Sequence record: PZ334583.1
DNA from: a phage
Strand: one strand, 5' to 3'
Length of the DNA stretch: 45,069 nt
The notes beneath the pieces are model-generated. The model was not told the DNA's origin and made no database searches. It saw only the letters and a list, made by a program, of their open reading frames with translations. The translations under genes were made by a program, and so were the position numbers. Of the stretch, positions 2,356-43,175 are shown piece by piece. The stretch's first letter is position 1. Every line of letters starts with the position of its first letter.

Positions 2356-2649
2356 ATGGCTAAATATGGTACTACAGGTTCTGTTACTGGTCAGGCTTTT
2401 CGAGTAAAAGCAGTACAAACTATTGCAACGGCAATTCCTATGCCTGTTGTTAAGGAAGTAGACCTTAAGAAGAAAGACCACCCTATCAACATCAAACACT
2501 TATCAGGTAAACAGAAAGGTGCAATGGTTGCTCTTGAGAAAACTGACACAACCATGCATATTGCTGTTGCACGTGGCAGTGAACCCACAGACCCATGGGA
2601 TGTAACTGGTATGGAAGGTGACGCTGTTACTCCGGCAGGTGGAGAATAA
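2356..2649 (+). CDS. Hypothetical late protein, paralog B of a tandem pair
   Basis: ATG 2356 preceded by AAGGAGGAAG; contains LSGKQKGAMVALE, paralogous to 2056..2337. Confidence 0.65.
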   Translation: MAKYGTTGSVTGQAFRVKAVQTIATAIPMPVVKEVDLKKKDHPINIKHLSGKQKGAMVALEKTDTTMHIAVARGSEPTDPWDVTGMEGDAVTPAGGE

Positions 2650-2993
2650 TGCTTAACAAATACTTCAAGCGTAAAGAGTTCGCTTGCCGTTGTGGGTGCG
2701 GTACATCCACTGTTGATGCTGAATTACTACAGGTAGTCACAGATGTGCGTGAGCACTTTGGTTCTCCTGTAGTTATCACTTCGGGGCACCGCTGTGCTAA
2801 GCACAATGCTAATGTAGGAGGAGCTAAGAACTCCATGCATCTTACTGGTAAGGCTGCTGACATTAAAGTTACTGGTATTGGGCCAATGGAGGTTCGTGCA
2901 TACCTGTGCAATAAATACCCCGATAAATATGGTATTGGTGCTTATCCTACTTTCACTCATATTGATGTGAGGGATAATAAAGCACGATGGTAA
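2649..2993 (+). CDS. Endolysin, peptidase M15 family (putative L-alanyl-D-glutamate or D-Ala-D-Ala peptidase)
   Basis: 114 aa; motifs FKRKEFACRCGCG, SGHRC..HN, MHLTGKAADI typical of zinc M15 cell-wall peptidases; TAATG overlap with the upstream gene. Confidence 0.8.
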   Translation: MLNKYFKRKEFACRCGCGTSTVDAELLQVVTDVREHFGSPVVITSGHRCAKHNANVGGAKNSMHLTGKAADIKVTGIGPMEVRAYLCNKYPDKYGIGAYPTFTHIDVRDNKARW

Positions 2994-5568: not shown

Positions 5569-5575
5569 GCAACAG

Positions 5576-5597
5576 GCAGTGCGTAAGCACTGCTTTT
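5576..5597 (+). terminator. Intrinsic terminator-like hairpin between the two tailspike genes
   Basis: gcagtgc-gtaa-gcactgc perfect 7-bp stem followed by tttt. Confidence 0.6.
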
Positions 5598-5653
5598 CAC
5601 GCAACTTTTCTTAAAGGTTATCACGGTGGTAGCCTTTCAGAAAAGGAGGTTAC

Positions 5654-7837
5654 ATGCTACAAAGATTAGGGGCAATGTTTGTTCGGTATAAAAATAAAGT
5701 AGGTAATGCTATCGAGCGTACACTACAAAGTAAATTACAGGATGTAGTCAGTGTAAAGGACTATGGCGCCATTGGTGATGGGGTATATCGTTCACTTGGT
5801 GATAAATTTACCACGTTAAGTATCGCACAAGTAGTATACCCACATGCTGAAAGTTTAACTCAATCGCAAGATTGGGCGGCTATTCAGGCTGCACTTAATT
5901 CTCACTCAAAAGTGTACATTCCAGCAGGTAGATACATGCTATCTGATACCATTGAGATGAGCGGAGGTCAAACTCTGCAAGGTGACGGTATTGACTCTTG
6001 GGTTGCAGGTTATGCTGGGTTTGTACAAGATAGGCAAGGCACTCACCTTATAATGGTGGGAGATGGCAATAAGAAGTATACATTAGATCATGTATCTAAC
6101 TTCGATGTAGAAGGTGGTGTCATAGACAACCCAGCTAAGAGTGATTCTTATACTGCCACTGCACCTTCCCCTAATTACTCATTTACTAACTTCACTAATG
6201 CTAACGCCTCTGGTGCACAACGTGCTACATTGAAACCTTTCAGCGTAGCATTACGTTGCACAGGTCACGGTGGTGTTTACCTTCGTGACTTCCGTATTGT
6301 GCCTAATCACAGAGGGCAAGAAGGTTATAAGGATGAGTTGTCAACTGCATTAGGGGACGCATGGGATGTAGGTATTTGGCTGGAGAATACATCTGACTCA
6401 GTGTTATCTTCTGTGCAAGCAGTAGGTTACTGGCGCATTGCAGGTGTTATGAAGACTTGTATACCACAAGATGGTTCCTTTGTTGGTGGAGAGCGTGATA
6501 GGATATACAATTGCACATTACAAGGTTATCGTGGCTTCTTAGCACGTTCGCATGATACTTACCAAGTAGAAGAAGTATCAGGTAACACTGTATCGATTAA
6601 GTGGTCTGCATCTCACACTTTCGAACCTTCTGGTAAAGTTCGTATCCAAGGGAAAGACCGTAGTTATACTAGCCTGTCTGTATCTGGTGACAAATTAGTT
6701 TTCACTGGTATTGACGATGTATCAGATATTAATACCAAGAGCTATGTGAGAGTTTCAGGGTCTTCATTCGGAATGTCTGCTACTCAACTAAATAACACAT
6801 ACATCGCTGCATTAAACCATCATGCTCGCTTGCCAGCGACCTCTAATCTTTTAGATAATAGGTTTTCTACTTCGGCAGCTTGCTATGAAGTTGCAGGTGA
6901 ACCAATTCGTGCCATAAAATTATCTAACTGTACTGTCATTACTTGGGATGACATCTTAGGTATGACTGGTGGTATTAGGGACTTCCAGACGACAGATACT
7001 TACTTCGAGTCTCAGCCTTTCCGTACTTCTGTGCAAGGCTTGGCAAGCACCACACAACCTGCTGGTTCTCGCATGATTGCACTTCGTGGACGTCAAGGTT
7101 CTAAAACTACAGGCTATCAAGCTATCGGTTGTACTTATGGGCCGGGTGTAGACCTAAGCCCTCGTTATGAAAGCGATGTATCTCGTTACACAACTTCCGG
7201 TGGTATGTTCAATCCAAGAGAAGATTTGAACACAACTAAGCAGTTACCAATGAGGCAAGACGCTACTGAGCTATCTTCTACTTCTGGCTTATTCCTTACA
7301 CATGCTGTAGGTGGGAAGGCCTATGTTGGCGCTACCTCTGGTGATGCAACGCTTCAATCTAGAACTGGATCATTGAATATCCAATCAGGACTTCGTGTAC
7401 GCATTGGTGGCACTGATGGTAGTGGTTGGTATATTGCTGACAGTGCTAAGTTGACACCTACTGCTGACAATGCAAGGGCTTGTGGACAACCTAATGGACG
7501 ATGGACTGTTGTCTATGCTGTTAATGGTACAATCCAGACTTCTGATGGTAGATTCAAGGAAATCCTTGAGATTGAACAGGCAGAACTTGATGCTGGTCTT
7601 GAATTATCAGCAAACCTAATTAAGTATCGGTGGAATGGGGAAGATAAAATTCACTTTGGTTGCATAGCACAAGAAGTGATGTTAATCCTGGAGAAACATG
7701 GCCTAAACCCATTACAATATGATATGGTTCAGTATGATGAGGAGGCAGACATCTTTGGGGTAAACTATGCTGAACTCAACAGCTTCTGTATTGCAGCATT
7801 ATCGAGGAAGTTAAATGCCATTAATCAGATCAGTTAA
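5654..7837 (+). CDS. Tailspike 2: pectate-lyase-like beta-helix with C-terminal intramolecular chaperone (peptidase S74) domain
   Basis: 727 aa; RBS AAAGGAGG; VKDYGAIGDG motif (pectate_lyase_3-type beta-helix N-cap); C-terminus TSDGRFKE...IHFGCIAQ...GVNYAEL is the S74 chaperone. Confidence 0.9.
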   Translation: MLQRLGAMFVRYKNKVGNAIERTLQSKLQDVVSVKDYGAIGDGVYRSLGDKFTTLSIAQVVYPHAESLTQSQDWAAIQAALNSHSKVYIPAGRYMLSDTIEMSGGQTLQGDGIDSWVAGYAGFVQDRQGTHLIMVGDGNKKYTLDHVSNFDVEGGVIDNPAKSDSYTATAPSPNYSFTNFTNANASGAQRATLKPFSVALRCTGHGGVYLRDFRIVPNHRGQEGYKDELSTALGDAWDVGIWLENTSDSVLSSVQAVGYWRIAGVMKTCIPQDGSFVGGERDRIYNCTLQGYRGFLARSHDTYQVEEVSGNTVSIKWSASHTFEPSGKVRIQGKDRSYTSLSVSGDKLVFTGIDDVSDINTKSYVRVSGSSFGMSATQLNNTYIAALNHHARLPATSNLLDNRFSTSAACYEVAGEPIRAIKLSNCTVITWDDILGMTGGIRDFQTTDTYFESQPFRTSVQGLASTTQPAGSRMIALRGRQGSKTTGYQAIGCTYGPGVDLSPRYESDVSRYTTSGGMFNPREDLNTTKQLPMRQDATELSSTSGLFLTHAVGGKAYVGATSGDATLQSRTGSLNIQSGLRVRIGGTDGSGWYIADSAKLTPTADNARACGQPNGRWTVVYAVNGTIQTSDGRFKEILEIEQAELDAGLELSANLIKYRWNGEDKIHFGCIAQEVMLILEKHGLNPLQYDMVQYDEEADIFGVNYAELNSFCIAALSRKLNAINQIS

Positions 7838-7964
7838 GCAAAGTGCTGTACGCCAGAACACAGAAGAACCTATTCAATCAGGACGTAACCCTAAGCAGGC
7901 TTATGCCATTGCCAAGGATGTACAACGTCGTGCCATGAAGAAACCTTCTGCATCTTCTGCGTAA
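7815..7964 (+). CDS. Small basic ORF (49 aa) overlapping the tailspike 2 stop
   Basis: ATG 7815 with RBS GAGGAAG 7803..7809; MPLIRSVKQSAVRQNTEEPIQSGRNPKQAYAIAKDVQRRAMKKPSASSA; last ORF before the terminal non-coding region. Confidence 0.35.
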   Translation: MPLIRSVKQSAVRQNTEEPIQSGRNPKQAYAIAKDVQRRAMKKPSASSA

Positions 7965-7976
7965 GCAGGTTAATAT

Positions 7977-8020
7977 CTTAGTGTACACAAGGGCAGACCT
8001 AGGTTTGCTCTTAGTGTATT
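7977..8020. repeat. Right-flank array of CTTAGTG heptamer repeats (SRR-like)
   Basis: cttagtgtacacaagg...ctcttagtgtatttac; same heptamer family as the 8320..8920 array. Confidence 0.5.
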
Positions 8021-8034
8021 TACAATGGAGGTCT

Positions 8035-8050
8035 TATATATATATATATA
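8035..8050. repeat. (TA)8 dinucleotide repeat
   Basis: tatatatatatatata read directly. Confidence 0.9.
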
Positions 8051-8147
8051 CCTATGGAAGCAATAGTAAGTTGCCTATGCTTGTTGATAGGTTTCGTTAT
8101 AGGCTTAATAGTAAATCCTTAGTCCTGTACAAGGGTTAACCAAAGTC

Positions 8148-8162
8148 AAAAAAAAAAAAAAA
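8148..8162. repeat. A15 homopolymer
   Basis: 15 consecutive A read directly, followed by a GC-rich block ctcgccctcgccctcgcc. Confidence 0.9.
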
Positions 8163-8319
8163 TTTGATGTAGGCGTGTGTCAGCTCTCTCGCCCTCGCCC
8201 TCGCCGGGTTGCCCCCATAGGGTGGCCTGAGGGAATCCGTCTTCGACGGGCAGGGCTGATGTGCTCCTTGGATAGTACAAGGGAGGCGGAGGGAACGCCT
8301 AGGGAGGCCTAGGAATGGC

Positions 8320-8920
8320 TTAGTGGTGGACAAGGTGATTGCCTTAGTGAAGCCTCTTAGTGCATTCCTGAGGCCATTCAGGGCGTTTATGAGGTATTGA
8401 CAAGATGGAGGGGGGCGTGGGCTATCTGTTCGTTTCGTTCACTCCGCTTGCGCTACGTTCACTCGCTCACGTGTACCTTAGGCTATTCCTTTATGGATAG
8501 CTTAGGTTATAGCTTAGTGGCCTACCTTAGTTATAACCTTAGTGCATAGCTTAGTATCAGCTTAGTAGTGTACCTTAGTAAGTCTTAGTGTCTTCTCTTA
8601 GTGATTGCACATGCAAGCATGTAAGATGCCATTAGGTCGCGGTCGGTAGACCGCTAAAGAAGGAGAATAGTAATAAGATGCAGTAGGAGGAACACCAGAA
8701 GCCTAGCCAACCTAAGCTATCCTAGCTCTATATCTATTGCTTTTCCTTAGTCTAACACGTTAGACAACCTATCTTTTTCTTAGTGATGGTAACTTAGTGT
8801 TGACAAGATAATCTTAGTGTAATACTATGCATCACGTAGGCGGTGCTGAGGCACCTAGTAGCCAGCTAGTAAGGCATACGAAGAGACTAGCGCTTACATT
8901 GCTCTTTAACAATTTGCTTA
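8320..8920. repeat. Left-flank array of about 20 dispersed CTTAGTG / AGCTTAGT heptamer repeats (SRL-like), interspersed with host-type promoters
   Basis: ggcttagtgg, gccttagtga, cctcttagtg, tagcttaggttatagcttagtggcctaccttagttataaccttagtgcatagcttagtatcagcttagtagtgtaccttagtaagtcttagtgtcttctcttagtg, and further copies at 8780..8920. Confidence 0.7.
8800..8828 (+). promoter_or_regulatory. Candidate host sigma70 early promoter
   Basis: TTGACA (8800..8805), 17-nt spacer, TACTAT (8823..8828); sits in the early leader as the T7 A promoters do. Confidence 0.4.
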
Positions 8921-8971
8921 GTGTAACCTATGTATGCCGTGGTTAACTACTTATTGAATGAGGTATTAACT

Positions 8972-9151
8972 ATGACATTAAACAACCGTGAACTGTCCGT
9001 TATCTTCACTCTGTTGTGCTACATGATTCGTAACAACGAATTACTTACAGACGATGAGTTAGCCTTGTATCACCGCTTTCTTAACGAAGGTTGGACCGAT
9101 ACAGTTAATCAATACCGTAACATGATAGATGAGTTGAGGGAGGGTAAATAA
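8972..9151 (+). CDS. Early hypothetical protein (59 aa)
   Basis: ATG 8972 with GAGG 8 nt upstream; ORF-track frame 8930..9151. Confidence 0.5.
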   Translation: MTLNNRELSVIFTLLCYMIRNNELLTDDELALYHRFLNEGWTDTVNQYRNMIDELREGK

Positions 9152-9375
9152 TGTATCAACATGAGGTATTCTTTGAATCAGCTAGCGAAGCTATTCGCTT
9201 CCGTGATGATATGATGCAAGCTGGCGTAGGTGTTGATGTGTATCACTATTTGATAGATTACGACACTGAATATCACCGAGTTACCTTAGTGACTGAGTAT
9301 GATAACCAAGTCATCACTGAGTACTTAGGCAGTGAAGATTACGATTACGATGAAGTAATCACGACAAATCTCTAA
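9151..9375 (+). CDS. Early small highly acidic protein (74 aa), possible DNA-mimic-type anti-host factor
   Basis: RBS GGGAGGG; Asp/Glu/Tyr-rich (EYDNQVITEYLGSEDYDYDEV); TAATG overlap with the upstream gene. Confidence 0.6.
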   Translation: MYQHEVFFESASEAIRFRDDMMQAGVGVDVYHYLIDYDTEYHRVTLVTEYDNQVITEYLGSEDYDYDEVITTNL

Positions 9376-9383
9376 ATTAACTG

Positions 9384-9412
9384 TTGACAGCCACGGCATA
9401 CAAGGTTACATT
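9384..9412 (+). promoter_or_regulatory. Candidate host sigma70 early promoter
   Basis: TTGACA (9384..9389), 17-nt spacer, TACATT (9407..9412). Confidence 0.35.
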
Positions 9413-9504
9413 AAGCATCAAGACGGCGACGTCTTTAAACATCCCGCTCTTTAACAATATGGTTTGTGTCTTGATAGGCTAACTAACTAACTAAGGTAAT
9501 TATC

Positions 9505-9615
9505 ATGAAAGGTTTAATTTGTGTAGAACGTATGGTCAATGGTAAAATTGAAATATTACCACTGGAAAACCAATCTAGCTTCAAAGAGTGGTATGGCTGT
9601 TTCTCACTGATTTAA
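9505..9615 (+). CDS. Small early ORF (36 aa)
   Basis: ATG 9505 after a (CTAA)n three-frame stop element and AAGG; MKGLICVERMVNGKIEILPLENQSSFKEWYGCFSLI. Confidence 0.3.
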   Translation: MKGLICVERMVNGKIEILPLENQSSFKEWYGCFSLI

Positions 9616-9766
9616 GGCAAAGGCTGGCACTAGTCAGCCTATCAAGGCGCAAACCAAGCTCTTTAACAATTTGGATGGCAGCTTCTTAGTCTGGATAGGT
9701 TAAACCTAGGGGATTCTCTTGAGTCTCCTATAATGTAACCTAACTAACTAAATGAGGATTAATAAC

Positions 9767-10123
9767 ATGGCTATGTCTAATATGACTTACTCTCAGGTTT
9801 ACAACACCGCTCATGCTGCATTAGTTGAACGTATCTGGAATGATGCTATTGATTGTATTGATAACGCACATGATGCAATCCATGATGCGGCGGATAGTGC
9901 TGTACCAATCTATTATGCTGACATCTTCTCCGTGATGGCGAGTGAAGGAATTGATCATTTCTTCGAAGACTCCGACCTGATGCCAGACACTAAGGATGTA
10001 ACGGTAGTATTGCAAGCCCGTATCTATGAGCAACTCACAATTGATCTATGGGAACGTGTTCAGTATATGATTGTTGAATACATCAACTCCGCCGCATATT
10101 TAGAAGAAAAAGAGGAAGAATAA
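9767..10123 (+). CDS. ocr: Ocr-like DNA-mimic anti-restriction protein (T7 gene 0.3 homolog)
   Basis: MAMSNMTY...[29 protein letters not shown]...[13 protein letters not shown]...[15 protein letters not shown]...EEKEEE closely matches the T7 Ocr sequence as I recall it; acidic; early-region position. Confidence 0.85.
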
Positions 10124-10124
10124 G

Positions 10125-10238
10125 ATGGAAAAGTTATACAACTTTATCTTTTCAGACGGTGTAACCCTGAAGTGTTCCCTACGACTCGCACAAATTCGTG
10201 AGGAAGTACTAGGCACTACATACAAACTATTTAGCTGA
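10125..10238 (+). CDS. Small early ORF (37 aa)
   Basis: ATG 10125 directly after the ocr stop, RBS GAGGAAG; MEKLYNFIFSDGVTLKCSLRLAQIREEVLGTTYKLFS. Confidence 0.35.
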   Translation: MEKLYNFIFSDGVTLKCSLRLAQIREEVLGTTYKLFS

Positions 10239-10251
10239 CACTATAAGAGAA
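10229..10251 (+). promoter_or_regulatory. Variant phage promoter-like sequence (the +1 G is replaced by A)
   Basis: atttagctgacactataagagaa; the -17..-1 region is closer to the SP6 consensus than the main family, but the CTATAG initiation box reads CTATAA. Confidence 0.35.
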
Positions 10252-32968: not shown

Positions 32969-33706
32969 ATGCCTGTAATTAGACAAACCAGTAAAGTAGG
33001 ACACATGATGGAAGATGTGGCCTTCCAGATTATTGATAGTAAACTTGAAGCGGTCAACCTGTGTATGCGAGCTATTGGTCGTGAGGGTGTGGATTCTCTC
33101 GACTCAGGGGACTTGGACGCAGAAGATGCAAGCAAGATGATCGACATCGTATCCCAGCGGTTCCAGTACAACAAAGGAGGTGGCTGGTGGTTCAATCGTG
33201 AACCAAACTGGCAGATTGCACCTGATACCAATGGTGAAGTCAATCTGCCTAACAACTGCCTAGCAGTATTGCAGTGTTATGCTTTGGGTGAGAAGAAAGT
33301 ACCCATGACTATGCGTGCAGGTAAGCTTTACTCCACATGGAGTCACACCTTTGATATGCGCAAGCATGTTAATGCTAATGGCATGATTCGTCTTACCTTA
33401 CTCACCTTACTACCTTACGAGCATCTACCTACAAGTGTAATGCAGGCTATTGCCTATCAAGCTGCTGTAGAGTTTATTGTGTCTAAGGATGCAGATCAGA
33501 CTAAGCTAGCCACTGCGCAGCAGATAGCCACTCAGCTTCTTATGGATGTACAATCTGAGCAAATGTCACAGAAGCGATTAAACATGCTGGTACATAACCC
33601 CACTCAGCGTCAGTTTGGTATCATGGCTGGTGGCTCTCAGAATGTACCTGCTTACTCTCATTCACCTTATGAAAGTTGGGCGCTCCGTCCGTGGGAGGAT
33701 CGTTAA
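32969..33706 (+). CDS. Tail tubular protein A (gp11-like)
   Basis: ATG 32969 with RBS AGGAGG; position and size. Confidence 0.85.
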   Translation: MPVIRQTSKVGHMMEDVAFQIIDSKLEAVNLCMRAIGREGVDSLDSGDLDAEDASKMIDIVSQRFQYNKGGGWWFNREPNWQIAPDTNGEVNLPNNCLAVLQCYALGEKKVPMTMRAGKLYSTWSHTFDMRKHVNANGMIRLTLLTLLPYEHLPTSVMQAIAYQAAVEFIVSKDADQTKLATAQQIATQLLMDVQSEQMSQKRLNMLVHNPTQRQFGIMAGGSQNVPAYSHSPYESWALRPWEDR

Positions 33707-36108
33707 TGGAAGTACAAGGTTCATTAGGTAGACAAATCCAAGGGATTAGCCAGCAGCCGCCAGCGGTACGCTTGGATGGTCAGTGCACAGCTATGGTTAA
33801 TATGATACCTGATGTAGTGAATGGTACCCAATCACGCATGGGTACAACTCATATTGCGAAGATACTTGATGCGGGGACTGATGACATGGCTACTCATCAT
33901 TATCGCAGAGGTGATGGTGATGAAGAGTATTTCTTCACGTTGAAGAAAGGACAAGTTCCTGAGATATTTGATAAGTATGGGCGCAAATGTAATGTGACTT
34001 CACAAGATGCACCTATGACCTACCTCTCTGAGGTTGTTAATCCAAGGGAAGATGTGCAATTCATGACGATAGCTGATGTTACTTTCATGCTTAATCGTAG
34101 GAAAGTAGTTAAAGCTAGTAGCAGGAAGTCACCTAAAGTTGGAAACAAAGCCATTGTGTTTTGTGCGTATGGTCAATATGGTACATCTTATTCCATTGTA
34201 ATTAATGGGGTCAACGCTGCTAGTTTTAAAACACCGGATGGTGGAAGTGCAGACCATGTTGAACAAATTCGAACTGAACGTATCACTTCTGAATTGTACT
34301 CTAAGTTGCAGCAATGGAGCGGTGTGAGTGACTATGAAATACAAAGAGACGGTACTAGTATATTTATCGAGAGACGGGATGGTGCTAGCTTTACAATAAC
34401 AACCACCGATGGTGCAAAAGGTAAGGACTTAGTGGCTATCAAGAATAAAGTTAGCTCTACTGACCTACTCCCTTCTCGTGCACCTGCTGGTTATAAAGTA
34501 CAAGTGTGGCCTACTGGCAGCAAACCTGAGTCTCGTTACTGGCTGCAAGCTGAGCCTAAAGAGGGAAACCTTGTGTCTTGGAAAGAAACAATAGCTGCTG
34601 ATGTATTACTTGGGTTTGATAAAGGCACAATGCCTTACATTATTGAACGTACAGATATCATCAACGGCATAGCTCAATTCAAGATAAGACAAGGTGATTG
34701 GGAAGATCGTAAAGTAGGGGATGACTTGACTAACCCTATGCCCTCTTTTATTGATGAGGAAGTACCCCAGACAATAGGTGGAATGTTCATGGTGCAGAAC
34801 CGCCTATGTTTTACAGCAGGTGAAGCGGTTATTGCTTCTCGTACATCATACTTCTTCGATTTCTTTCGTTATACGGTTATCTCTGCATTGGCAACTGACC
34901 CATTTGATATTTTCTCAGATGCTAGTGAAGTCTACCAGCTAAAACATGCAGTGACCTTAGATGGCGCTACCGTGTTGTTCTCTGATAAGTCACAATTCAT
35001 ACTGCCAGGAGATAAGCCTTTAGAGAAGTCAAATGCATTGCTTAAGCCTGTTACAACATTTGAAGTGAACAATAAAGTGAAGCCAGTAGTAACTGGTGAA
35101 TCGGTAATGTTTGCCACTAATGATGGTTCTTACTCTGGTGTACGAGAGTTCTATACAGACTCTTATAGTGACACTAAGAAGGCACAAGCAATCACAAGTC
35201 ATGTGAATAAACTCATCGAAGGTAACATTACCAACATGGCAGCAAGCACCAATGTCAACAGGTTACTTGTCACTACCGATAAGTATCGTAACATAATCTA
35301 CTGCTACGATTGGTTATGGCAAGGAACAGACCGTGTACAATCAGCATGGCATGTATGGAAGTGGCCTATAGGTACAAAGGTGCGAGGTATGTTTTATTCT
35401 GGTGAATTACTTTACCTGCTCCTTGAGCGAGGGGATGGCGTATATCTGGAGAGGATGGACATGGGTGATGCACTAACCTACGGTTTGAATGACCGCATCA
35501 GAATGGATAGGCAAGCAGAGTTAGTCTTCAAGTATTTTAAAGCAGAAGATGAATGGGCGTCTGAACCTCTTCCTTGGACTCCTACTAACCCAGAACTTTT
35601 AGATTGCATCTTAATCGAGGGTTGGGATTCATATATTGGTGGCTCTTTCTTATTCAAGTACAACCCTAGTGACAATACTTTGTCTACAACCTTTGATATG
35701 TATGATGACAGTCATGTAAAAGCGAAGGTTATTGTTGGTCAGATTTACCCTCAAGAGTTTGAACCTACACCTGTGGTTATCAGAGACAATCAAGACCGTG
35801 TATCCTATATTGATGTACCAGTTGTAGGATTGGTTCACCTTAATCTTGACATGTACCCCGATTTCTCCGTAGAAGTTAAGAATGTGAAGAGTGGTAAAGT
35901 ACGTAGAGTATTAGCGTCAAACCGTATAGGTGGTGCTCTCAATAATACAGTAGGCTATGTTGAACCGAGAGAAGGTGTCTTCAGATTTCCACTGAGAGCT
36001 AAGAGCACGGATGTTGTTTATCGTATTATTGTAGAGTCACCCCACACATTCCAGCTTCGTGATATTGAGTGGGAAGGGAGCTACAATCCAACCAAAAGGA
36101 GGGTCTAA
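33706..36108 (+). CDS. Tail tubular protein B (gp12-like)
   Basis: 800 aa from ATG 33706 (TAATG overlap, RBS GGGAGGA); N-terminus ...IQGISQQPPAVRLDGQ matches the conserved gp12 GISQQP motif. Confidence 0.9.
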   Translation: MEVQGSLGRQIQGISQQPPAVRLDGQCTAMVNMIPDVVNGTQSRMGTTHIAKILDAGTDDMATHHYRRGDGDEEYFFTLKKGQVPEIFDKYGRKCNVTSQDAPMTYLSEVVNPREDVQFMTIADVTFMLNRRKVVKASSRKSPKVGNKAIVFCAYGQYGTSYSIVINGVNAASFKTPDGGSADHVEQIRTERITSELYSKLQQWSGVSDYEIQRDGTSIFIERRDGASFTITTTDGAKGKDLVAIKNKVSSTDLLPSRAPAGYKVQVWPTGSKPESRYWLQAEPKEGNLVSWKETIAADVLLGFDKGTMPYIIERTDIINGIAQFKIRQGDWEDRKVGDDLTNPMPSFIDEEVPQTIGGMFMVQNRLCFTAGEAVIASRTSYFFDFFRYTVISALATDPFDIFSDASEVYQLKHAVTLDGATVLFSDKSQFILPGDKPLEKSNALLKPVTTFEVNNKVKPVVTGESVMFATNDGSYSGVREFYTDSYSDTKKAQAITSHVNKLIEGNITNMAASTNVNRLLVTTDKYRNIIYCYDWLWQGTDRVQSAWHVWKWPIGTKVRGMFYSGELLYLLLERGDGVYLERMDMGDALTYGLNDRIRMDRQAELVFKYFKAEDEWASEPLPWTPTNPELLDCILIEGWDSYIGGSFLFKYNPSDNTLSTTFDMYDDSHVKAKVIVGQIYPQEFEPTPVVIRDNQDRVSYIDVPVVGLVHLNLDMYPDFSVEVKNVKSGKVRRVLASNRIGGALNNTVGYVEPREGVFRFPLRAKSTDVVYRIIVESPHTFQLRDIEWEGSYNPTKRRV

Positions 36109-36854
36109 TGGCTATAGGTTCAGCCGTTATGGCTGGTATGTCTTCTATTGGTAGTATGTTTGCAGGTAGCGGTGCAGCAGCCGCTGCTGGTGGTACTGCC
36201 GCAGCAGCAGGAGGGACAGCCGCCGCAGGTGGCGGAGGTTTGCTTGGCTCCCTTGGTAGTTTCTTAGGAGGTTCTTCTGCTGGCTTCTCTAATGCAGGAC
36301 TGCTTAGTGCAGGTATGCAAGGTCTTGGTCTTCTAGGCAATCTTTTTGGTGGAAGCGATGAAGCCAAAGCTATGAAGAAAGCTCAGGAGGAGCAATGGCG
36401 GCAGCAGTTAATTGCTACACAAGAAGCATATAAGACAGTGGCAGATGCAGAACGCTCTGCTGCTAAACAGTATCATGCGGATGCAATAAGCAATCAGGCT
36501 TCACTACTGCAGCAGAGAGCACAGGTTGCATTGCTTGCTGGTGCTACTGGTACTGGTGGTAACTCTGTGTCTTCTATGCTGAATGACTTAGCAGCAGAAG
36601 GCGGAAGGAACCAGAGTACAATTATCGATAACTATGAGAATCAGAAGATTAACTTCACCAACCAGCTTAAGTCCATCCAACGTGGTGGTCAGATGCAGAT
36701 GCGTGAGTTTAAGAAACCTTCTGCCGTGAGCACCTTGGTGCAAGGTATACCGAGTCTGGCATCTGCCTATGTAACAGGTAGTAAGTCCGGCATGGCTTTA
36801 GGTAAAGCTTTAACTGATTCTCGTACATATTCATCTGGAACAAGAGGTATTTAA
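36108..36854 (+). CDS. Internal virion protein A (gp14-like), Gly/Ala-rich N-terminus
   Basis: ATG 36108 (TAATG overlap, RBS AAAGGAGGG). Confidence 0.75.
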   Translation: MAIGSAVMAGMSSIGSMFAGSGAAAAAGGTAAAAGGTAAAGGGGLLGSLGSFLGGSSAGFSNAGLLSAGMQGLGLLGNLFGGSDEAKAMKKAQEEQWRQQLIATQEAYKTVADAERSAAKQYHADAISNQASLLQQRAQVALLAGATGTGGNSVSSMLNDLAAEGGRNQSTIIDNYENQKINFTNQLKSIQRGGQMQMREFKKPSAVSTLVQGIPSLASAYVTGSKSGMALGKALTDSRTYSSGTRGI

Positions 36855-39802
36855 TGGCAATTGAGCGACAAGCAGTACAAGGTCTGCCACAAGTGCAGGC
36901 CACTTCTCCTAATGTCATGACCTTTGCACCTCAGCGAGTTGGAGGTGTGGAGGCTGGCGTAGCTTCTACCTCCGGTAGTCGATTTATCGAAGACCTTATT
37001 CGAGCAGCCAGTAGTGTAGCTGATGTAACCACTGGTATCCTTAATCAAAAGATTGAGGAAGATAAGGTTGTTCAAATGGAACGGGCATATAACGGATTAA
37101 TGCCTTCTGAGGATGCAACTCGTGGTGGCGCTCGTGCTAACATGCTTGTCAAAGCTCAACTGCTAGCTAATGATGAAGCAGCACGAATGAAAGACATGGC
37201 TACTCGTTTCCAAGGAACGGATGACGAGTGGACACAACTTATGGTTGACTCTCGTAATGAGATGCAGAATAAGCTGTTCCAGCAATACCCTGAGTTGCAA
37301 GGTGACAAAGATACTATGCGTATGGTCACTAATGTCTTCCAAGAACAGCAGCCTCAGATTTGGGCGACACGAACCCAGCATAAACTTGACCGTGAACAAG
37401 CAGACCGTGAGGATACCTTTGACGGGCGAGTGGCTTCTACTTGGGATTCTAATATTGACCCTGAAGCATCTGGCTATGCTTTACAGGAACGAATCCGCGA
37501 AGGTCTTACTCAAGGATTACTACCTGAACAGATGCACAAGAAGTTAGTCCAGCGAGCAATTTCACTTGCACAAGGCGGTGATGTTAGCATGGCTGAAGCC
37601 CTGAAGTATGTGAAGGACGATAAGGGTGTTTCTGTTTATGCTAAGAATCCACAGCTTATCACAGCCATCACTAGTGGTAATGCAGTTTGGGCTAGGAATA
37701 ATGTAGCTGATGTAACTCGTATGTCTTTCGAAGTTAAAGAATCCTACCTTGCAGGTGATTTAACTGATGAAGAATTGTTGGAACGAGCACAGCACATTAA
37801 TAATCTGACAGGTAACTCTGTCTTCTCTAATCCAGAGCTAGAGGCACTGATGCGCCAACGGGCTAAGCAGAATGCAGAGCTAGGTGCAATGCAGGATATG
37901 CGACGTGAGCTTTACTCCGACCGCCTGACTGGCTTCCAAGGTAAGACTGATAAAGAGAAGAAGGCTTACATTGATGTTATCAAACAGGATAGCCAACTTT
38001 ATGCAGACCAGCAAATCAAACAACGTGGCTTGGACCCTTACAGTCAAGAGGCTGAAGCTATTCGTGGTGCAGTGGAAGTGCAGCGCCTGCAATTCATGAA
38101 CTCCAAAGGCTTAGTGGATGATACCTTTGAGTCTCGTATCAAAGCCATGGAATCTATGCTATCGCCTGAGCACTTTGCCAAGGGCGAACCACAGGAGTTG
38201 ATGACTATTCGCCAGTTGTGGGAACAGTTGCCAGAAGAGAGCCGAGGTGTCTTTGGTGACACGGTGAATGGCTACATGGATAACTACAACACTGCACTAC
38301 AAATGGGAGAGACACCTTTGCAGGCTGCAAGGTTTGCGCGTGAAGCACAGCAGAAATTCTCTCGTACTGAGAAGGAAACCAAGAAGTTCAACTCAGCTAT
38401 TGGAGATGCACTGGATGAGGTATCTGGTGCTGGCTGGTTTGATGGTAAAACCGAAGTGTCAGACTTAGGTAAAGCTATTGCGGAAGAAGAGTTACGAGCT
38501 AAGGCCAATATGTTGTGGTCTAGTGGTATGCGTAACATGGATTCTATCAAGAAGGCTTTAATTACTTGGGGCAATAAACGCTACACTCAAACAGAGGATG
38601 CAAAGACTTCCGGTGGCTATTTCATTAAAGGTGATTACACTTCTGCATCTGATATGCTTATGTCAGTTGGGAAAGGCGTAAACCCTACCGATGTACCTCT
38701 GGCGCTTGGTAGGTATGTAGAAACACAGATGCCAGAATTGAAGAAGGAGCTTCAAGAGTGGGAAACTAAAGATGATATATACATTGATTACAATGAACAG
38801 AAAGGTACTTTCGTGATTCGTGCTGGTGCAGCAGGTCGCCCTCTTTCTGGAGTAATCCCTGTAACCTCTTTAGATACCACTTCACTACTAGATTCTGCCT
38901 ATCAGAAGAAAGTAGAGGAACGAGATAAAGGCGAGTATGTTCACCCTTATCGTACAGATATTGGTGCACAAGAGCCTATGCCAGCTAAACCCACTGCCAA
39001 AGATATTGGTAAATTTGGACTAGCTAACTTCCTCATGTCTTCTGCTTTTGCTTCTGGTGAGAATCTGCCTTCTAACTTCGAGATTAACTATCGAGGTAAT
39101 ATGCAACAATTCTATGACAAGCTAGCTATGGATGAGAATAAAGATAAAGTTGGCTTTAATAAGGCAACTGGAACCTTTACTCCATATAAAGATGCTCACG
39201 GTGAGTCTATCGGTTACGGTCATTTCTTAACGGAAGAAGAGAAGAGAAACGGGTATATTAAGATTGGTGATGAACTAGTTCCCTATCGAGGGTCTATGTC
39301 TCAGCTTACAGAGAGCAAGGCTCGCGCTCTTATGGAGCAAGATGCCAAGAAGCATGTGCCTCCTACTCGTGACTGGAAGATTCCGTTTGACCAGATGCAT
39401 CCTGCACAGCAACGTGGTTTGATGGATTTAACCTACAATTTAGGTAAAGGTGGAATCCAGAACTCACCGCGTGCTCTTGCTGCATTCAAAGCTGGTAAGC
39501 TTACGGAAGGCTTTATCGAAATGCTGGGCACTGCATCAAGTGAAGGTAAACGTATTCCGGGCCTACTGAAGCGACGCGCTGAGGCATACAATATGGCAGC
39601 TGCTGGTGGTGTACCTAAGATCACAGAAGTGGAGACGAGGGAAGATGGCTCTATGTGGGTTAAGTTTGGTGGACCTATGCCAGCAGGCTCTGTTTCTGCG
39701 TGGACGCATAAACGTATTGGAGCCGATGGCTGGTATCAGGTTTATGAGGCTGCACCTACCAAGTTAGCTAAAGACTCTAAGGTAGGTAAAGTTAAATTGT
39801 AG
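36854..39802 (+). CDS. Internal virion protein B (gp15-like) with C-terminal lysozyme-like peptidoglycan hydrolase domain
   Basis: 982 aa; C-terminal region ...GESIGYGHFLTEEE...QQRGLMDLTYNLGKGG...GKRIPGLLKRRAEAYNMA resembles phage lysozyme-type muramidases. Confidence 0.8.
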   Translation: MAIERQAVQGLPQVQATSPNVMTFAPQRVGGVEAGVASTSGSRFIEDLIRAASSVADVTTGILNQKIEEDKVVQMERAYNGLMPSEDATRGGARANMLVKAQLLANDEAARMKDMATRFQGTDDEWTQLMVDSRNEMQNKLFQQYPELQGDKDTMRMVTNVFQEQQPQIWATRTQHKLDREQADREDTFDGRVASTWDSNIDPEASGYALQERIREGLTQGLLPEQMHKKLVQRAISLAQGGDVSMAEALKYVKDDKGVSVYAKNPQLITAITSGNAVWARNNVADVTRMSFEVKESYLAGDLTDEELLERAQHINNLTGNSVFSNPELEALMRQRAKQNAELGAMQDMRRELYSDRLTGFQGKTDKEKKAYIDVIKQDSQLYADQQIKQRGLDPYSQEAEAIRGAVEVQRLQFMNSKGLVDDTFESRIKAMESMLSPEHFAKGEPQELMTIRQLWEQLPEESRGVFGDTVNGYMDNYNTALQMGETPLQAARFAREAQQKFSRTEKETKKFNSAIGDALDEVSGAGWFDGKTEVSDLGKAIAEEELRAKANMLWSSGMRNMDSIKKALITWGNKRYTQTEDAKTSGGYFIKGDYTSASDMLMSVGKGVNPTDVPLALGRYVETQMPELKKELQEWETKDDIYIDYNEQKGTFVIRAGAAGRPLSGVIPVTSLDTTSLLDSAYQKKVEERDKGEYVHPYRTDIGAQEPMPAKPTAKDIGKFGLANFLMSSAFASGENLPSNFEINYRGNMQQFYDKLAMDENKDKVGFNKATGTFTPYKDAHGESIGYGHFLTEEEKRNGYIKIGDELVPYRGSMSQLTESKARALMEQDAKKHVPPTRDWKIPFDQMHPAQQRGLMDLTYNLGKGGIQNSPRALAAFKAGKLTEGFIEMLGTASSEGKRIPGLLKRRAEAYNMAAAGGVPKITEVETREDGSMWVKFGGPMPAGSVSAWTHKRIGADGWYQVYEAAPTKLAKDSKVGKVKL

Positions 39803-39819
39803 TACCTAACTCAAGGCTT

Positions 39820-39835
39820 GTCTCACATGTGAGAC
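39820..39835. repeat. Palindrome GTCTCACATGTGAGAC, copy 6, between internal virion protein genes
   Basis: exact sequence read; extended context ggcttgtctcacatgtgagacaggtctttat. Confidence 0.9.
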
Positions 39836-39866
39836 AGGTCTTTATGATAGGCACTATGGAGGAACT

Positions 39867-42800
39867 ATGGAACAAGATATTAAGACTAATTGGGCTGGAT
39901 ATGTCCAGTCTACTCCTGAGCCGTTTTCTATTGAGGCGGCTCCGGTATCGGCTCCTACGATACGCCAGCGTAATGAGTTACAAGAGCAAGTTCTTGAAGC
40001 TAAAGCTGGTGCTGATATCTTAGGTGCTGTAGGTGCTGCCTTCCAGAATGAGTGGTTGGCATTCGGAGGCAAGCGGTGGTATGACCGTGCCACTGCTGAT
40101 TTCACACCTCAACCAGACTTCGAGATACAACCTGAGCAACGTGAAGCACTACGTTTCAAATATGGTACAGATATGATGCAGACAATCACTGAGGGTGTTC
40201 GTTCTGAGGATGAATTGAACTTCCGTATTCAGAATGCTGATGAAGACCTTGAGCGCAATAAGCGCATTGCTCAGGCTGGCTGGGTTGGCTCTGTGGCGAC
40301 GATTGGCGCTGCTGTGCTTGACCCTGTGGGATGGGTTGCCTCTATTCCAACCGGTGGTGCCGCTAAAGTTGGACTCGTAGGCCGTGCTGTGCGTGGCGCT
40401 ATCGCCGCTGGCGTAAGTAATGCCGCTATTGAATCCGTATTGGTCCAAGGTGACATGACTCGTGATTTAGATGACATTATGGTAGCACTAGGTTCCGGTA
40501 TGGCTATGGGTGGCGTTATTGGAGCTGTAGCGCGTGGTAGGGCCACTAAGCTCAGTGAGCAAGGAGATGACAGGGCTGCGAGCATTGTGCGCAGTGCAGA
40601 CGCAGGGGACCGCTATGTGCGTGCTGTTGCTGATGATAGTATCGGTGCGATGCGTGTTAAGGGTGAAGAGGTACTCACTGAGGGTGCATTTGATATCTCT
40701 AGCAAAGGTGAAGATTTGCTGAAAACCCTACAGCGGGAAGGTAATGCAATTGATATGACCCCTCGCCGCTGGGCCGGAACTCTGTCTGCCCTTGGTACTG
40801 TCGTACATTCCTCTCAGGATGCAAGTGTACGCGGCCTTGGTGCTCGCCTGTTTGAGTCCCCCCAAGGCTTAGGTATGCAGAAGGCATCTGCTAGTCTCAT
40901 GCAGAATACTAACTTGAACCGTCTGAAATCTGCTGATATGAATCGTTTCAACGATGGGTTCGATTTATGGCTCAAAGAGAATAATATCAATCCGGTTGCA
41001 GGTCATACTAACTCTCACTATGTGCAGCAATATAATGAGAAGGTATGGGAAGCTGTACGCATCGGTATGGATGAGTCTACGCCTAAGTCTATCCGTATGG
41101 CAGCAGAGGGGCAGCAAGCTATGTATCGTGAAGCATTAGCATTACGTCAACGCTCTGGTGAATCTGGGTTTGAAAAGGTTAAAGCAGATGATAAGTACAT
41201 GCCTGATATTTTTGACAGTATGAAGGCTCGTCGTCAATTCAGTATGCACGATAAAGAGGACATCATTGAGTTATTCTCTCGTGCATACCAGAATGGTTCT
41301 CGTAAGGTTCCAAAGGAAGTGGCTGATGATATTGCACGAGCACAAGTAAACCGCGTTGCTGATGCCACCTTGACCGGACAGCTTAGCTTTGAAAAGGCTA
41401 TGTCTGGTCAAACCAAAGCAGAATATGAAGCACTAATGCGCAAAGCAGGCTTTAGTGATGAAGAGATTGAAAAGATGGTAGAAGCTCTGGATAATAAAGA
41501 AACCAGAGATAATATCTCTAACCGAGCTAAGATGAGTTTAGGCTTAGATGTTACTCAAGAGTACAATGGCATTCGTATGCGTGACTTTATGAACACTAAC
41601 GTGGAAGAGTTAACAGATAACTATATGAAGGAAGCGGCAGGTGGTGCTGCCTTGGCTCGTCAAGGTTTCTCTACCTATCAGGCTGCACTTAATGCAATTG
41701 ATCTTGTAGAGCGAAATGCACGAAATGCAGCTAAAGATACAAAAGCACACGCACAATTTGAAGCGGAGTCGGCTAAGATCCGTCAATCAGAGCCTGATTA
41801 CAAGAAGGCACAAGAGAAGATTGAAGAGTTAAAGAAGCGACTTAAATTGAAAGAGAAAGATGAAGCAGCTGGTCTGGCTATTGATGAAGAAATCCGTCAG
41901 ATGCGAGAAGGGCTTCGCTTGATTATGGGTAAATCTATCGATTCAAACCCACAAGATTTGTCTACTAAAATGCTGCGTCGTGGGCGTGACATTACAGGTG
42001 TACTTCGCTTAGGTCAGATGGGCTTCGCACAGCTAGGTGAACTTGCTAACTTCATGGGTGAGTTTGGTATTGCTGCCACCACTATGGCTTTAGGTAAGCA
42101 ATTCCGCTTCACCTCTAAGGCGTTGCGTAATGGCGATGGCTTCTTCCGAGATAAGAACCTTGCCGAAGTCGAGCGTATGGTTGGTTATATTGGGGAAGAT
42201 AACTGGCTAACAACCAAGGGTGCACGTCCAGATGAGTTCGGAGATGTAACCACAGTAAGAGGGATGATGGCTCACTTTGACCAATCCATGAACTCAATAC
42301 GTCGTGCTCAAACCAACCTATCACTCTTCCGCATGGCACAGGGTTCTCTGGAGCGAATGACCAATAGGCAAATAGCTTTGTCTTTCATTGACCACCTTGA
42401 AGGCAAGAAGATTATTCCTCAGAAGAAACTGGAGGAACTTGGTCTTACTCAGGAGTTCATGACTAACCTACAGAAGCACTATGATGCTAACTCTAAAGGT
42501 TCTGGCTTGCTTGGCTTTGATACAATGCCTTATGCCATGGGTGAAACTTTAGCTAATGCTATTCGTCGTAAGTCAGGTCTAATTATCCAACGTAACTTCA
42601 TTGGTGATGAAGGTATCTGGATGAACAAAGCACTAGGTAAGACATTTGCACAGCTTAAGTCATTCTCTCTTGTATCTGGTGAGAAGCAATTTGGTCGAGG
42701 GATTCGCCACGATAAAATTGGTCTTGCTAAGAAGACAGCTTATGGTTTTGCTTTGGGTTCAATAGTGTATGCGGCAAAAGCCTATGTGAACTCTATTGGT

Positions 42801-43175
42801 CGAGAAGACCAAGATGAATATTTGGAAGAGAAGTTATCGCCTAAAGGGTTGGCCTTTGGTGCAATGGGTATGATGAGTACAACTGCTGTATTTAGTCTAG
42901 GTGGAGATTTCTTAGGTGGCCTAGGTGTTCTACCTTCTGAGTTAGTACAATCCCGTTATGAGGCTGGCTTTCAGACTAAGGGTTTGATAGACCAAATACC
43001 ACTAGTAGGTGTTGGTCAAGATGCATATCGTTTAGCAGATTCTATAACTAAATACGCAGAGGGTGATACAGAAGGTGTAGATGTGGCACGTAGGGCTTTA
43101 CGCTTAGTGCCTCTAGCTAATGTAATAGGAATCCAGAACGCATTGCGTTATGGCTTAGATGAACTGGAGGATTAA
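39867..43175 (+). CDS. Internal core / ejection protein C (gp16-like)
   Basis: 1102 aa; largest virion protein; position after gp15-like. Confidence 0.85.
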   Translation: MEQDIKTNWAGYVQSTPEPFSIEAAPVSAPTIRQRNELQEQVLEAKAGADILGAVGAAFQNEWLAFGGKRWYDRATADFTPQPDFEIQPEQREALRFKYGTDMMQTITEGVRSEDELNFRIQNADEDLERNKRIAQAGWVGSVATIGAAVLDPVGWVASIPTGGAAKVGLVGRAVRGAIAAGVSNAAIESVLVQGDMTRDLDDIMVALGSGMAMGGVIGAVARGRATKLSEQGDDRAASIVRSADAGDRYVRAVADDSIGAMRVKGEEVLTEGAFDISSKGEDLLKTLQREGNAIDMTPRRWAGTLSALGTVVHSSQDASVRGLGARLFESPQGLGMQKASASLMQNTNLNRLKSADMNRFNDGFDLWLKENNINPVAGHTNSHYVQQYNEKVWEAVRIGMDESTPKSIRMAAEGQQAMYREALALRQRSGESGFEKVKADDKYMPDIFDSMKARRQFSMHDKEDIIELFSRAYQNGSRKVPKEVADDIARAQVNRVADATLTGQLSFEKAMSGQTKAEYEALMRKAGFSDEEIEKMVEALDNKETRDNISNRAKMSLGLDVTQEYNGIRMRDFMNTNVEELTDNYMKEAAGGAALARQGFSTYQAALNAIDLVERNARNAAKDTKAHAQFEAESAKIRQSEPDYKKAQEKIEELKKRLKLKEKDEAAGLAIDEEIRQMREGLRLIMGKSIDSNPQDLSTKMLRRGRDITGVLRLGQMGFAQLGELANFMGEFGIAATTMALGKQFRFTSKALRNGDGFFRDKNLAEVERMVGYIGEDNWLTTKGARPDEFGDVTTVRGMMAHFDQSMNSIRRAQTNLSLFRMAQGSLERMTNRQIALSFIDHLEGKKIIPQKKLEELGLTQEFMTNLQKHYDANSKGSGLLGFDTMPYAMGETLANAIRRKSGLIIQRNFIGDEGIWMNKALGKTFAQLKSFSLVSGEKQFGRGIRHDKIGLAKKTAYGFALGSIVYAAKAYVNSIGREDQDEYLEEKLSPKGLAFGAMGMMSTTAVFSLGGDFLGGLGVLPSELVQSRYEAGFQTKGLIDQIPLVGVGQDAYRLADSITKYAEGDTEGVDVARRALRLVPLANVIGIQNALRYGLDELED

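Follow-up and report, generated by a model that had tools for sequence, protein, structure and literature searches.

Background

The closest described relatives of the protein considered here are K1E gp35, K1-5 gp38 and SP6 gp36, of which it is an orthologue. Table 2 of one review (PMC5380687), following Moak & Molineux 2004, lists K1-5 gp38 (YP_654136, 109 kDa) and SP6 gp36 as lysozyme-type virion-associated lysins, and a second (PMC8954989) places lysozyme activity on gp35 in K1E and K1-5 and on gp16 in T7. Presence in the virion and ejection at infection are reported in these reviews for the SP6 and K1-5 orthologues (PMC8954989, PMC5380687). Ejection proteins in the gp15 position of the type represented by phiKMV gp36 and Ar-KM gp42 have been characterised biochemically and by cryo-EM, and a cryo-EM study of a phiKMV-like phage, available as a preprint, describes a gp15-like protein with a T4-lysozyme-like domain (bioRxiv 10.64898/2026.05.18.726046). 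According to the same preprint, C-terminal placement on the gp15-like protein occurs in 31 of the 127 Autographivirales that have an identifiable ejectosome lysozyme or transglycosylase domain.

The podophage genome-delivery machine is modular, in that its peptidoglycan cutter can be carried by the gp16-like or the gp15-position protein and can have either an SLT or a GH24 fold. As this modularity has already been shown (K1E, K1-5, SP6, phiKMV) and surveyed across Autographivirales, the locus described below adds no new biology. What it offers is of a practical kind, namely a correct annotation, together with a predicted catalytic triad (E761/D780/S785) and domain boundaries that could be used for engineering or expressing a virion lysin.

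Results

The stretch of DNA analysed (the window; 45,069 nucleotides, record PZ334583.1) is a complete Vectrevirus genome, that of a K1E/K1-5-type (SP6-like) coliphage, a podophage. On its + strand the nozzle gene is followed by a gp14-like gene, a gene for a 982-aa protein and a gp16-like gene, in other words the cluster of internal-protein genes (gp14-gp15-gp16) that follows the tail tube/nozzle genes (Table 1). The 982-aa reading frame opens with ATG and closes with TAG, and its translation is matched over the full length by PHROG 4290, 'lysozyme domain-containing protein'. For the gp14-like gene, the start annotated in relatives (VEc3, K1E) gives a product of 240 aa. The intergenic stretch between the 982-aa and gp16-like genes (39803-39866) bears a weak likeness to the SP6 promoter core, and a phage promoter considered there was rejected, the window's eight SP6-type promoters all lying elsewhere; no intrinsic terminator was called in this stretch.

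Table 1. Coordinates of the virion lysozyme gene, its predicted parts and related genes in the window
Feature	Position	Strand	Evidence
Predicted separate endolysin, 114 aa, M15 peptidase	2649..2993	+	Pfam Peptidase_M15_3, E=4.2e-33
Nozzle	33676-36108	+	PF25675
Upstream gp14-like internal virion protein (outer-membrane component of ejectosome)	36069..36854	+	Pfam PF24072 T7_gp14, E=1.1e-32; PHROG 805
Internal virion / ejection protein gene, 982 aa, 109.4 kDa	36854..39802	+	ORF list, translation; PHROG 4290
N-terminal body, ~735 aa, presumed periplasmic tunnel or core	36854..39058	+	Gene position, size, published analogy
GH24 (T4-lysozyme-like) muramidase domain, aa ~740-915 (~176 aa)	39071..39598	+	Pfam, model, Foldseek, hhalign
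E761 codon, predicted catalytic general acid (= T4L Glu11)	39134..39136	+	hhalign mapping
D780 codon (= T4L Asp20)	39191..39193	+	hhalign mapping
S785 codon (= T4L Thr26), within SIGYGH block	39206..39208	+	hhalign mapping
Beta-rich module, ~60 aa (aa 922-982), specific to SP6/K1E-like clade	39617..39799	+	Predicted strands
Downstream gp16-like internal virion protein, 1102 aa, without N-terminal SLT	39867..43175	+	PHROG 342

The 982-aa protein is identical to K1E gp35 at 975 of 982 positions and to K1-5 gp38 at 974 of 982, and in both phages length and gene order are the same as here (YP_654136 for K1-5). The seven or eight substitutions include none at a predicted catalytic residue, the nearest being T860S and A916S in K1-5. 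SP6 gp36 is more distant, with 63% identity over the C-terminal 282 aa; the SP6-like phages make up the Molineuxvirinae. The lysozyme fusion also occurs in relatives from SP6, Klebsiella, Proteus, Erwinia and Vibrio phages and in many metagenomic representatives of 850-1000 aa. Database names for the same gene vary, among them 'hypothetical protein', 'baseplate hub', 'putative endolysin' and 'tail lysin'.

Evidence for a lysozyme domain comes from profile, sequence and structure comparisons. Pfam PF00959 (Phage_lysozyme) matches residues 776-910 with E=2.2e-10 and 41.4 bits, where the cut-off is 22.3, a match far beyond chance. Among the PDB matches of a phmmer search with the 982-aa protein were chains of T4 lysozyme (E=6e-4), and a family profile of 113 sequences aligned to T4 lysozyme (T4L) by hhalign with a probability of 98.6% and E=1e-15. 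Collecting homologues needed a profile search and a representative library, a single-sequence homologue search of a 5.8-billion-protein set having returned only 3 matches. The first model of the domain, built on a 4-sequence alignment, was poor (pLDDT 63, with the N-lobe below 50), and its fold matches were weak, none reaching E<=0.001, though mostly to T4L. That alignment was superseded by the 113-sequence one, with which the structure prediction proposed in the earlier note gave a GH24 fold at pLDDT 91.6 and pTM 0.86 (AlphaFold). GH24 lysozymes and T4L fusions account for all of the best 50 Foldseek matches of this model in the PDB, each with probability 1.00, and among these 50 the free lysozymes have target-normalised TM scores of 0.55-0.66; the structural matches include R21, DLP12, AbLys1, T4L and EC340. 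The domain is thus modelled with the two-lobed alpha+beta T4-lysozyme fold.

Mapping by hhalign onto T4L places the predicted catalytic residues at E761, D780 and S785. In the alignment the first of these positions is E in 103 of 105 non-gap rows (26 of 28 among long homologues), the second is D in 103 of 108, and the third is S or T in all 108, while GYGH, D830, N862-x-G864 and R907-R908 are almost invariant across the 113 relatives. Judged by these alignments, the predicted GH24 triad E761/D780/S785 is intact and conserved. Relative to T4L, the spacing from catalytic Glu to Asp includes a 10-residue insertion. The muramidase-like blocks singled out in the earlier note were all located (GYGHF at 787-791, LTYNLG at 859-864 and PGLLKRRAEAYNMA at 902-915), and its assignment of the protein to the lysozyme type agrees with the predicted fold and the putative Glu/Asp/Ser(Thr) triad. 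The same note had placed a lysozyme-like region of about 180 aa at the very end of the protein; a GH24 domain of that order is indeed present at ~740-915, but it does not form the extreme C-terminus, as residues ~922-982 make up a separate beta module.

The strands of this terminal module are predicted with pLDDT above 90, and no Pfam family matched aa 922-982. It is kept in close relatives and missing from many other relatives of ~900 aa that carry a C-terminal lysozyme; a 953-aa protein of Erwinia phage S2 matches lysozyme domain and beta module together (TMq 0.91). It is also the only part of the protein without an account in the literature that we reached. One tentative suggestion, which we think rather less than probable, is that it binds peptidoglycan, as a module not described before, or docks to the core and so holds the enzyme in place or in check in capsid and periplasm.

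The ~735 residues that precede the lysozyme domain gave no Pfam family at E<=1. The protein had been called 'gp15-like', a label that holds for gene position and size but not for sequence homology: BLASTP of the 982-aa protein against T7 gp15 gave E=1.1, and T7 gp15 against a 17-sequence profile of the N-terminal body gave an hhalign probability of 0.1%. Chains of T7 gp15, P22 gp20 and Sf6 gp12 were likewise absent from the PDB sequence matches at E<=1. A relationship of this N-terminal body with T7 gp15, or with the N-terminal part of phiKMV gp36, was rejected on negative BLASTP, phmmer and hhalign comparisons, which used single-sequence templates and so bear on detectable rather than remote homology. 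Among long representatives (850-1000 aa), 17 combine a homologous N-terminal region with the C-terminal lysozyme. Since no T7 gp15 homology was detected, we use 'gp15-like' as a positional label only, and the presumed tunnel role draws on gene position, size and published analogy.

T7 gp16 was named in the earlier note as the carrier of a lytic transglycosylase, and as a positive control it did return an SLT domain in Pfam (aa 15-127, E=1.7e-31). The 1102-aa gp16-like protein of the window has no Pfam match to SLT (PF01464) at E<=1; its match to PHROG 342 does not begin until profile position 162, and its BLASTP alignment with T7 gp16 starts only at about T7 residue 275. The earlier note had put the wall-degrading activity on the preceding internal protein, and it is there that the GH24 domain is found. 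The GH24 domain on the gp15-position protein, the gp16-like protein without SLT and a separate M15 endolysin together support the earlier interpretation of this locus.

Discussion

We consider the 982-aa protein to be, with high confidence, the virion-associated lysin of a K1E/K1-5-type podophage, cutting peptidoglycan during ejection. It would be packaged in the internal core of the capsid with the gp14-like and gp16-like proteins, and at infection the three would leave via the tail and form a channel across the cell envelope, in which the gp15-position protein would span the periplasm, a role taken from the literature. The GH24 domain would locally cleave MurNAc-beta-1,4-GlcNAc bonds of the peptidoglycan, so that the channel could reach the inner membrane, and would thereby do the job of the N-terminal SLT of T7 gp16, a domain missing from the gp16-like protein here. 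That the enzyme is a hydrolase and not a transglycosylase, and when and where it acts, is what we infer. The finding of a virion lysozyme is correct but already known, having been published for the 99%-identical K1E and K1-5 proteins (PMC8954989, PMC5380687); with the same protein already listed as a virion-borne lysozyme in K1-5, K1E and SP6, it is an ordinary one.

GH24 folds include transglycosylase enzymes, for example lambda R, so the fold alone is no proof of which bond chemistry applies, and 'lysozyme type' could describe the fold only, with the domain working by lytic transglycosylation and yielding 1,6-anhydro-MurNAc, as lambda R does. In favour of this reading, neither fold nor sequence by itself determines the reaction, phage muramidases of mixed kind make up the top structural matches (R21, DLP12, T4L), and an insertion sets the catalytic Glu and Asp 10 residues further apart than in T4L. 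From the enzymology of T4L and lambda R, however, transglycosylase-type GH24 relatives are distinguished by loss of the Asp/Thr pair. Here that pair is retained, the hydrolase residues Glu11, Asp20 and Thr26 of T4L all have conserved equivalents, and the K1-5 and SP6 proteins are classed as lysozyme type in reviews (PMC5380687), which makes transglycosylase chemistry improbable. That the domain has lost its catalysis and persists only as a structural or peptidoglycan-binding relic is scarcely credible: nothing specific speaks for it, the nearest thing being Pfam coverage that begins past the catalytic Glu (profile position 9), and against it stand both the near-invariance in 113 relatives of the triad and the other conserved positions and the place of the K1-5 protein, 99% identical to this one, among the virion-associated lysins listed in reviews (PMC5380687).

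A further question is whether the virion lysozyme might also serve, alone or with others, as endolysin late in infection. Such dual use was formerly proposed for SP6, whose virion lysozyme was then thought to be the sole muralytic gene, and the muralytic domain of T7 gp16 can evolve to offset loss of the lysis enzyme. However, the window has a gene of its own for a dedicated M15 peptidase, identified by its Pfam match (Table 1), and the VEc3 orthologue of this gene is annotated as endolysin and adjoins holin and spanin genes; SP6 gp46 was later identified as an M15 peptidase, with an endolysin role suggested (PMC4837284); and no export signal is evident in the 109-kDa protein, which is meant for packaging. 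We regard dual use as quite unlikely. By its sequence and neighbours the M15 peptidase appears to be the phage's dedicated lysis enzyme, distinct from the 982-aa virion lysozyme.

With the virion-lysin reading retained, the locus can be set beside better-studied delivery machines. In the Krylovirinae, phiKMV gp36 and Ar-KM gp42 have the same architecture and presumed role, being large proteins encoded between gp14-like and gp16-like genes, with a T4-lysozyme-like domain near the C-terminus. The N-terminal bodies are nevertheless unrelated at sequence level, and similarity between phiKMV gp36 and the window protein is limited to a short local match at the YKDAxGxSxGxGH block; phiKMV gp36 (898 aa) is without a counterpart of the terminal beta module and, unlike the window protein, has no PF00959 match at E<=1. 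The SLT of T7 gp16 does the same job, in that an internal core protein, once ejected, cuts the peptidoglycan locally while the genome is delivered (PMC8954989), but differs in fold (SLT/PF01464 versus GH24/PF00959), in carrier (gp16 versus the gp15-position protein), in placement (N- versus C-terminal) and probably in chemistry (transglycosylase versus hydrolase). T4 lysozyme (gpe) and the lysozyme domain of T4 gp5 share the GH24 fold and the Glu/Asp/Thr(Ser) triad with the window domain at ~18-22% identity, and T4 gp5 is a virion-borne entry lysozyme too; in T4 gp5, however, the domain is fused to a baseplate spike, whereas in the K1E/K1-5-type phage it is fused to a 735-aa podophage internal core protein.

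An internal virion protein with a GH24 domain

The window (45,069 bp) is a complete, circularly permuted Vectrevirus genome (K1E/K1-5-like; Autographiviridae, Molineuxvirinae) with the gene order of Escherichia phage VEc3, K1E and K1-5. Eight sites on the + strand (3568, 10229, 17072, 17763, 21465, 23159, 26300 and 31632) match the SP6 RNA polymerase promoter with ≤3 mismatches (local consensus ATTTACTGGACACTATAGAAG); chance would yield none, and the set is consistent with a phage-encoded single-subunit RNA polymerase. The whole 2,949-bp stretch of the 982-aa gene is matched by 65 phage records, mostly at 95-99% identity.

The three lysozyme-like motif blocks that the earlier note had claimed in this protein are all present (GYGHF, aa 787-791; LTYNLG, aa 859-864; PGLLKRRAEAYNMA, aa 902-915) and are part of a real domain: aa 776-910 match Pfam PF00959 (Phage_lysozyme) at 41.4 bits (E=2.2e-10; cut-off 22.3 bits), PHROG 4290 ('lysozyme domain-containing protein') matches over the whole length, and T4 lysozyme chains are the only PDB sequences matched (phmmer, best E=6e-4). 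Four sequences yielded a structure model of low quality (pLDDT 63); its replacement, built from A3, an alignment of 113 GH24 relatives gathered by profile search, is a confident model of aa 736-982 (pLDDT 91.6, pTM 0.86). Among this model's best 50 Foldseek matches in the PDB there are only GH24 lysozymes and T4 lysozyme fusion constructs (probability 1.00), the matches including phage 21 R21, DLP12 endolysin, AbLys1, EC340, a fungal GH24 muramidase and T4 lysozyme itself; among predicted viral structures the top match is a 953-aa 'lysozyme' of Erwinia phage vB_EamP-S2 (TMq 0.91, E=1e-23), spanning both the lysozyme domain and the terminal module behind it. A muramidase fold, specifically that of GH24, is therefore predicted, and the lack of one, which would have spoken against the earlier note's claim, did not arise.

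In the model the lysozyme domain extends from a long helix beginning at about aa 740 to a helix finishing at about aa 915, and is followed by a separate small module (aa ~922-982), built from four beta strands plus one short helix. The domain had been described as C-terminal; it does lie close to the C-terminus but, with a module on the scale of 60 aa behind it, is therefore near the end rather than at it. No Pfam family matched the module; the terminal region (aa 916-982) is basic (pI 9.4). The module is kept across the SP6/K1E-like clade, and many other 850-1000-aa relatives with a C-terminal lysozyme stop directly after the enzyme domain. Cell-wall binding and core docking are both possibilities for this uncharacterised module, the only loose end of the analysis.

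Features of the window discussed in the text
Feature	Position	Strand	Remarks
Endolysin, 114-aa M15 peptidase	2649-2993	+	Pfam E=4e-33
Nozzle gene	upstream of 982-aa gene		PF25675, E=7e-177
gp14-family gene	upstream of 982-aa gene	+	PF24072, E=1e-32
982-aa internal virion protein gene	36854-39802	+	ORF, ATG start, 109.4 kDa
Catalytic Glu-to-Asp segment	39134-39193 (aa 761-780)	+	19-residue spacing
C-terminal beta-rich module	39617-39799 (aa ~922-982)	+	predicted model, pLDDT >90
Perfect 18-bp palindrome TGTCTCACATGTGAGACA	39819-39836		in 64-bp gap 39803-39866 between gp15-position and gp16-like genes
gp16-like gene, 1,102 aa	39867-43175, downstream of 982-aa gene	+	PHROG 342, E=9e-245

Catalytic residues and chemistry

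Alignment of the A3 profile with T4 lysozyme (hhalign, probability 98.6%, E=1e-15) places Glu11, Asp20 and Thr26 of the latter opposite E761, D780 and S785. Among the non-gap rows of A3, 103/105 have E at the first of these positions, 103/108 have D at the second and 108/108 have S or T at the third; G787-Y-G-H790, D830, N862, G864 and R907-R908 are nearly invariant as well. Glu and Asp are 9 residues apart in T4 lysozyme but 19 here, a 10-residue insertion. Within the insertion is a conserved E-N-x4-G-[FY]-[ND] motif that typifies members borne on virion proteins; it is missing from those that have the canonical 'EG' motif. Because the triad is intact, the sequence argues for a true hydrolytic muramidase, a chemistry beyond proof in silico. 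A GH24 fold with transglycosylase chemistry is unlikely, since the Asp and Ser/Thr are conserved, and it is very unlikely that the domain is an inactive relic.

Neighbouring genes and mechanism

The PHROG 342 match of the gp16-like protein begins only at profile position 162, BLASTP aligns T7 gp16 only from about residue 275 on, and Pfam finds no SLT (transglycosylase) domain in its 1,102 aa even at E≤1; the same search recovered the SLT of T7 gp16, our positive control (aa 15-127, E=1.7e-31). The muralytic module is thus on the gp15-position protein and not on the gp16-like one, which bears out the claim that the wall-degrading activity appears to sit on the preceding internal protein. 'gp15-like' holds for gene position and fails for sequence homology to T7 gp15 (BLASTP E=1.1; 17-sequence profile, probability 0.1%; no gp15, gp20 or gp12 chain among the PDB sequence matches), and on these comparisons appears to be a positional label only.

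The 64-bp gap behind the 982-aa gene contrasts with the other genes of the cluster, which abut or overlap. It contains no SP6-type promoter, and a simple scan called no terminator at its palindrome, which may form an RNA hairpin and serve as a processing site or an attenuator.

Very probably, an ejected core protein opens the murein for the channel by means of its GH24 domain. The 982-aa protein would belong to the internal core of the packaged particle and, at infection, be ejected to become part of a trans-envelope channel; the GH24 domain would then cut glycan strands locally, letting the channel cross the murein layer, and so fill the role of the SLT domain in T7 gp16. Fold, catalytic residues, synteny and orthology are what the present analysis demonstrates; we infer both hydrolase chemistry and a conditional importance of the domain. 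That the protein doubles as an endolysin, as was once proposed for SP6 (PMC2680503), is unlikely because the window encodes a dedicated M15 endolysin, whose VEc3 orthologue adjoins holin and spanin genes. The lysozyme domain itself is confirmed, and its interpretation as a lysozyme-type activity on the gp15-position protein is supported by fold, triad and SLT-less neighbour.

Comparison with known phages

The protein is identical to K1E gp35 at 975/982 positions and to K1-5 gp38 (YP_654136) at 974/982; SP6 gp36 shares 63% identity with its last 282 aa. Virion location and classification as a lysin come from literature on 99%-identical orthologues. SP6 gp36 (107 kDa) and K1-5 gp38 (109 kDa) are listed as lysozyme-type virion-associated lysins (Latka et al., PMC5380687 Table 2, after Moak & Molineux 2004), the likeness of the SP6 gp36 C-terminus to lysozyme was already pointed out in 2004 genome papers (PMC4837284), and Swanson et al. 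(PMC8954989) place on the gp15-like protein, in K1E and K1-5, the lysozyme activity that T7 has on gp16. Their lengths for K1E gp34/gp35/gp36 (240/982/1102 aa) agree with those of two genes here (982 and 1102 aa) and with the 240 aa annotated for the gp14-like gene in K1E. The length of the gp16-like ejection protein differs even between close relatives: 1102 aa in the window and K1E, 1061 aa as annotated in K1-5 (L005, the comparison stretch bearing it, 7063-10248) and 1270 aa for SP6 gp37 (PMC8954989).

The virion lysozyme of this phage is a known feature that has been annotated before; in several database records the gene bears the label 'lysozyme domain-containing protein'. GenBank labels are inconsistent, that one standing beside 'hypothetical protein', 'baseplate hub (subunit)', 'putative endolysin', 'tail lysin' and 'putative internal head protein'; the label 'baseplate hub' was wrongly carried over from T4 gp5.

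The biochemically characterised analogue is phiKMV gp36, with a C-terminal lysozyme domain (Latka et al., PMC5380687); it has only a YKDAxGxSxGxGH block in common with the window protein and gives no PF00959 match even at E≤1 (L004, the stretch bearing it, 4867-7560), although its domain is active, and profile libraries therefore under-detect such virion lysins. Cryo-EM of a phiKMV-like phage shows a T4-lysozyme-like domain on the gp15-like protein (2026 preprint, 10.64898/2026.05.18.726046). In the same work, 127 of 205 surveyed Autographivirales had an identifiable domain, placed at the gp16-like N-terminus in 86/127, at the gp15-like C-terminus in 31/127 and in the gp15-like middle in 10/127, with total ejectosome length constrained to 2378 ± 162 aa; the ejectosome here (240+982+1102 = 2324 aa) is inside that range. 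Our own searches likewise show the lysozyme fusion to be widespread, with examples among SP6-like phages of Salmonella, Klebsiella, Proteus, Erwinia, Pectobacterium and Vibrio and in many metagenomic representatives of 850-1000 aa.
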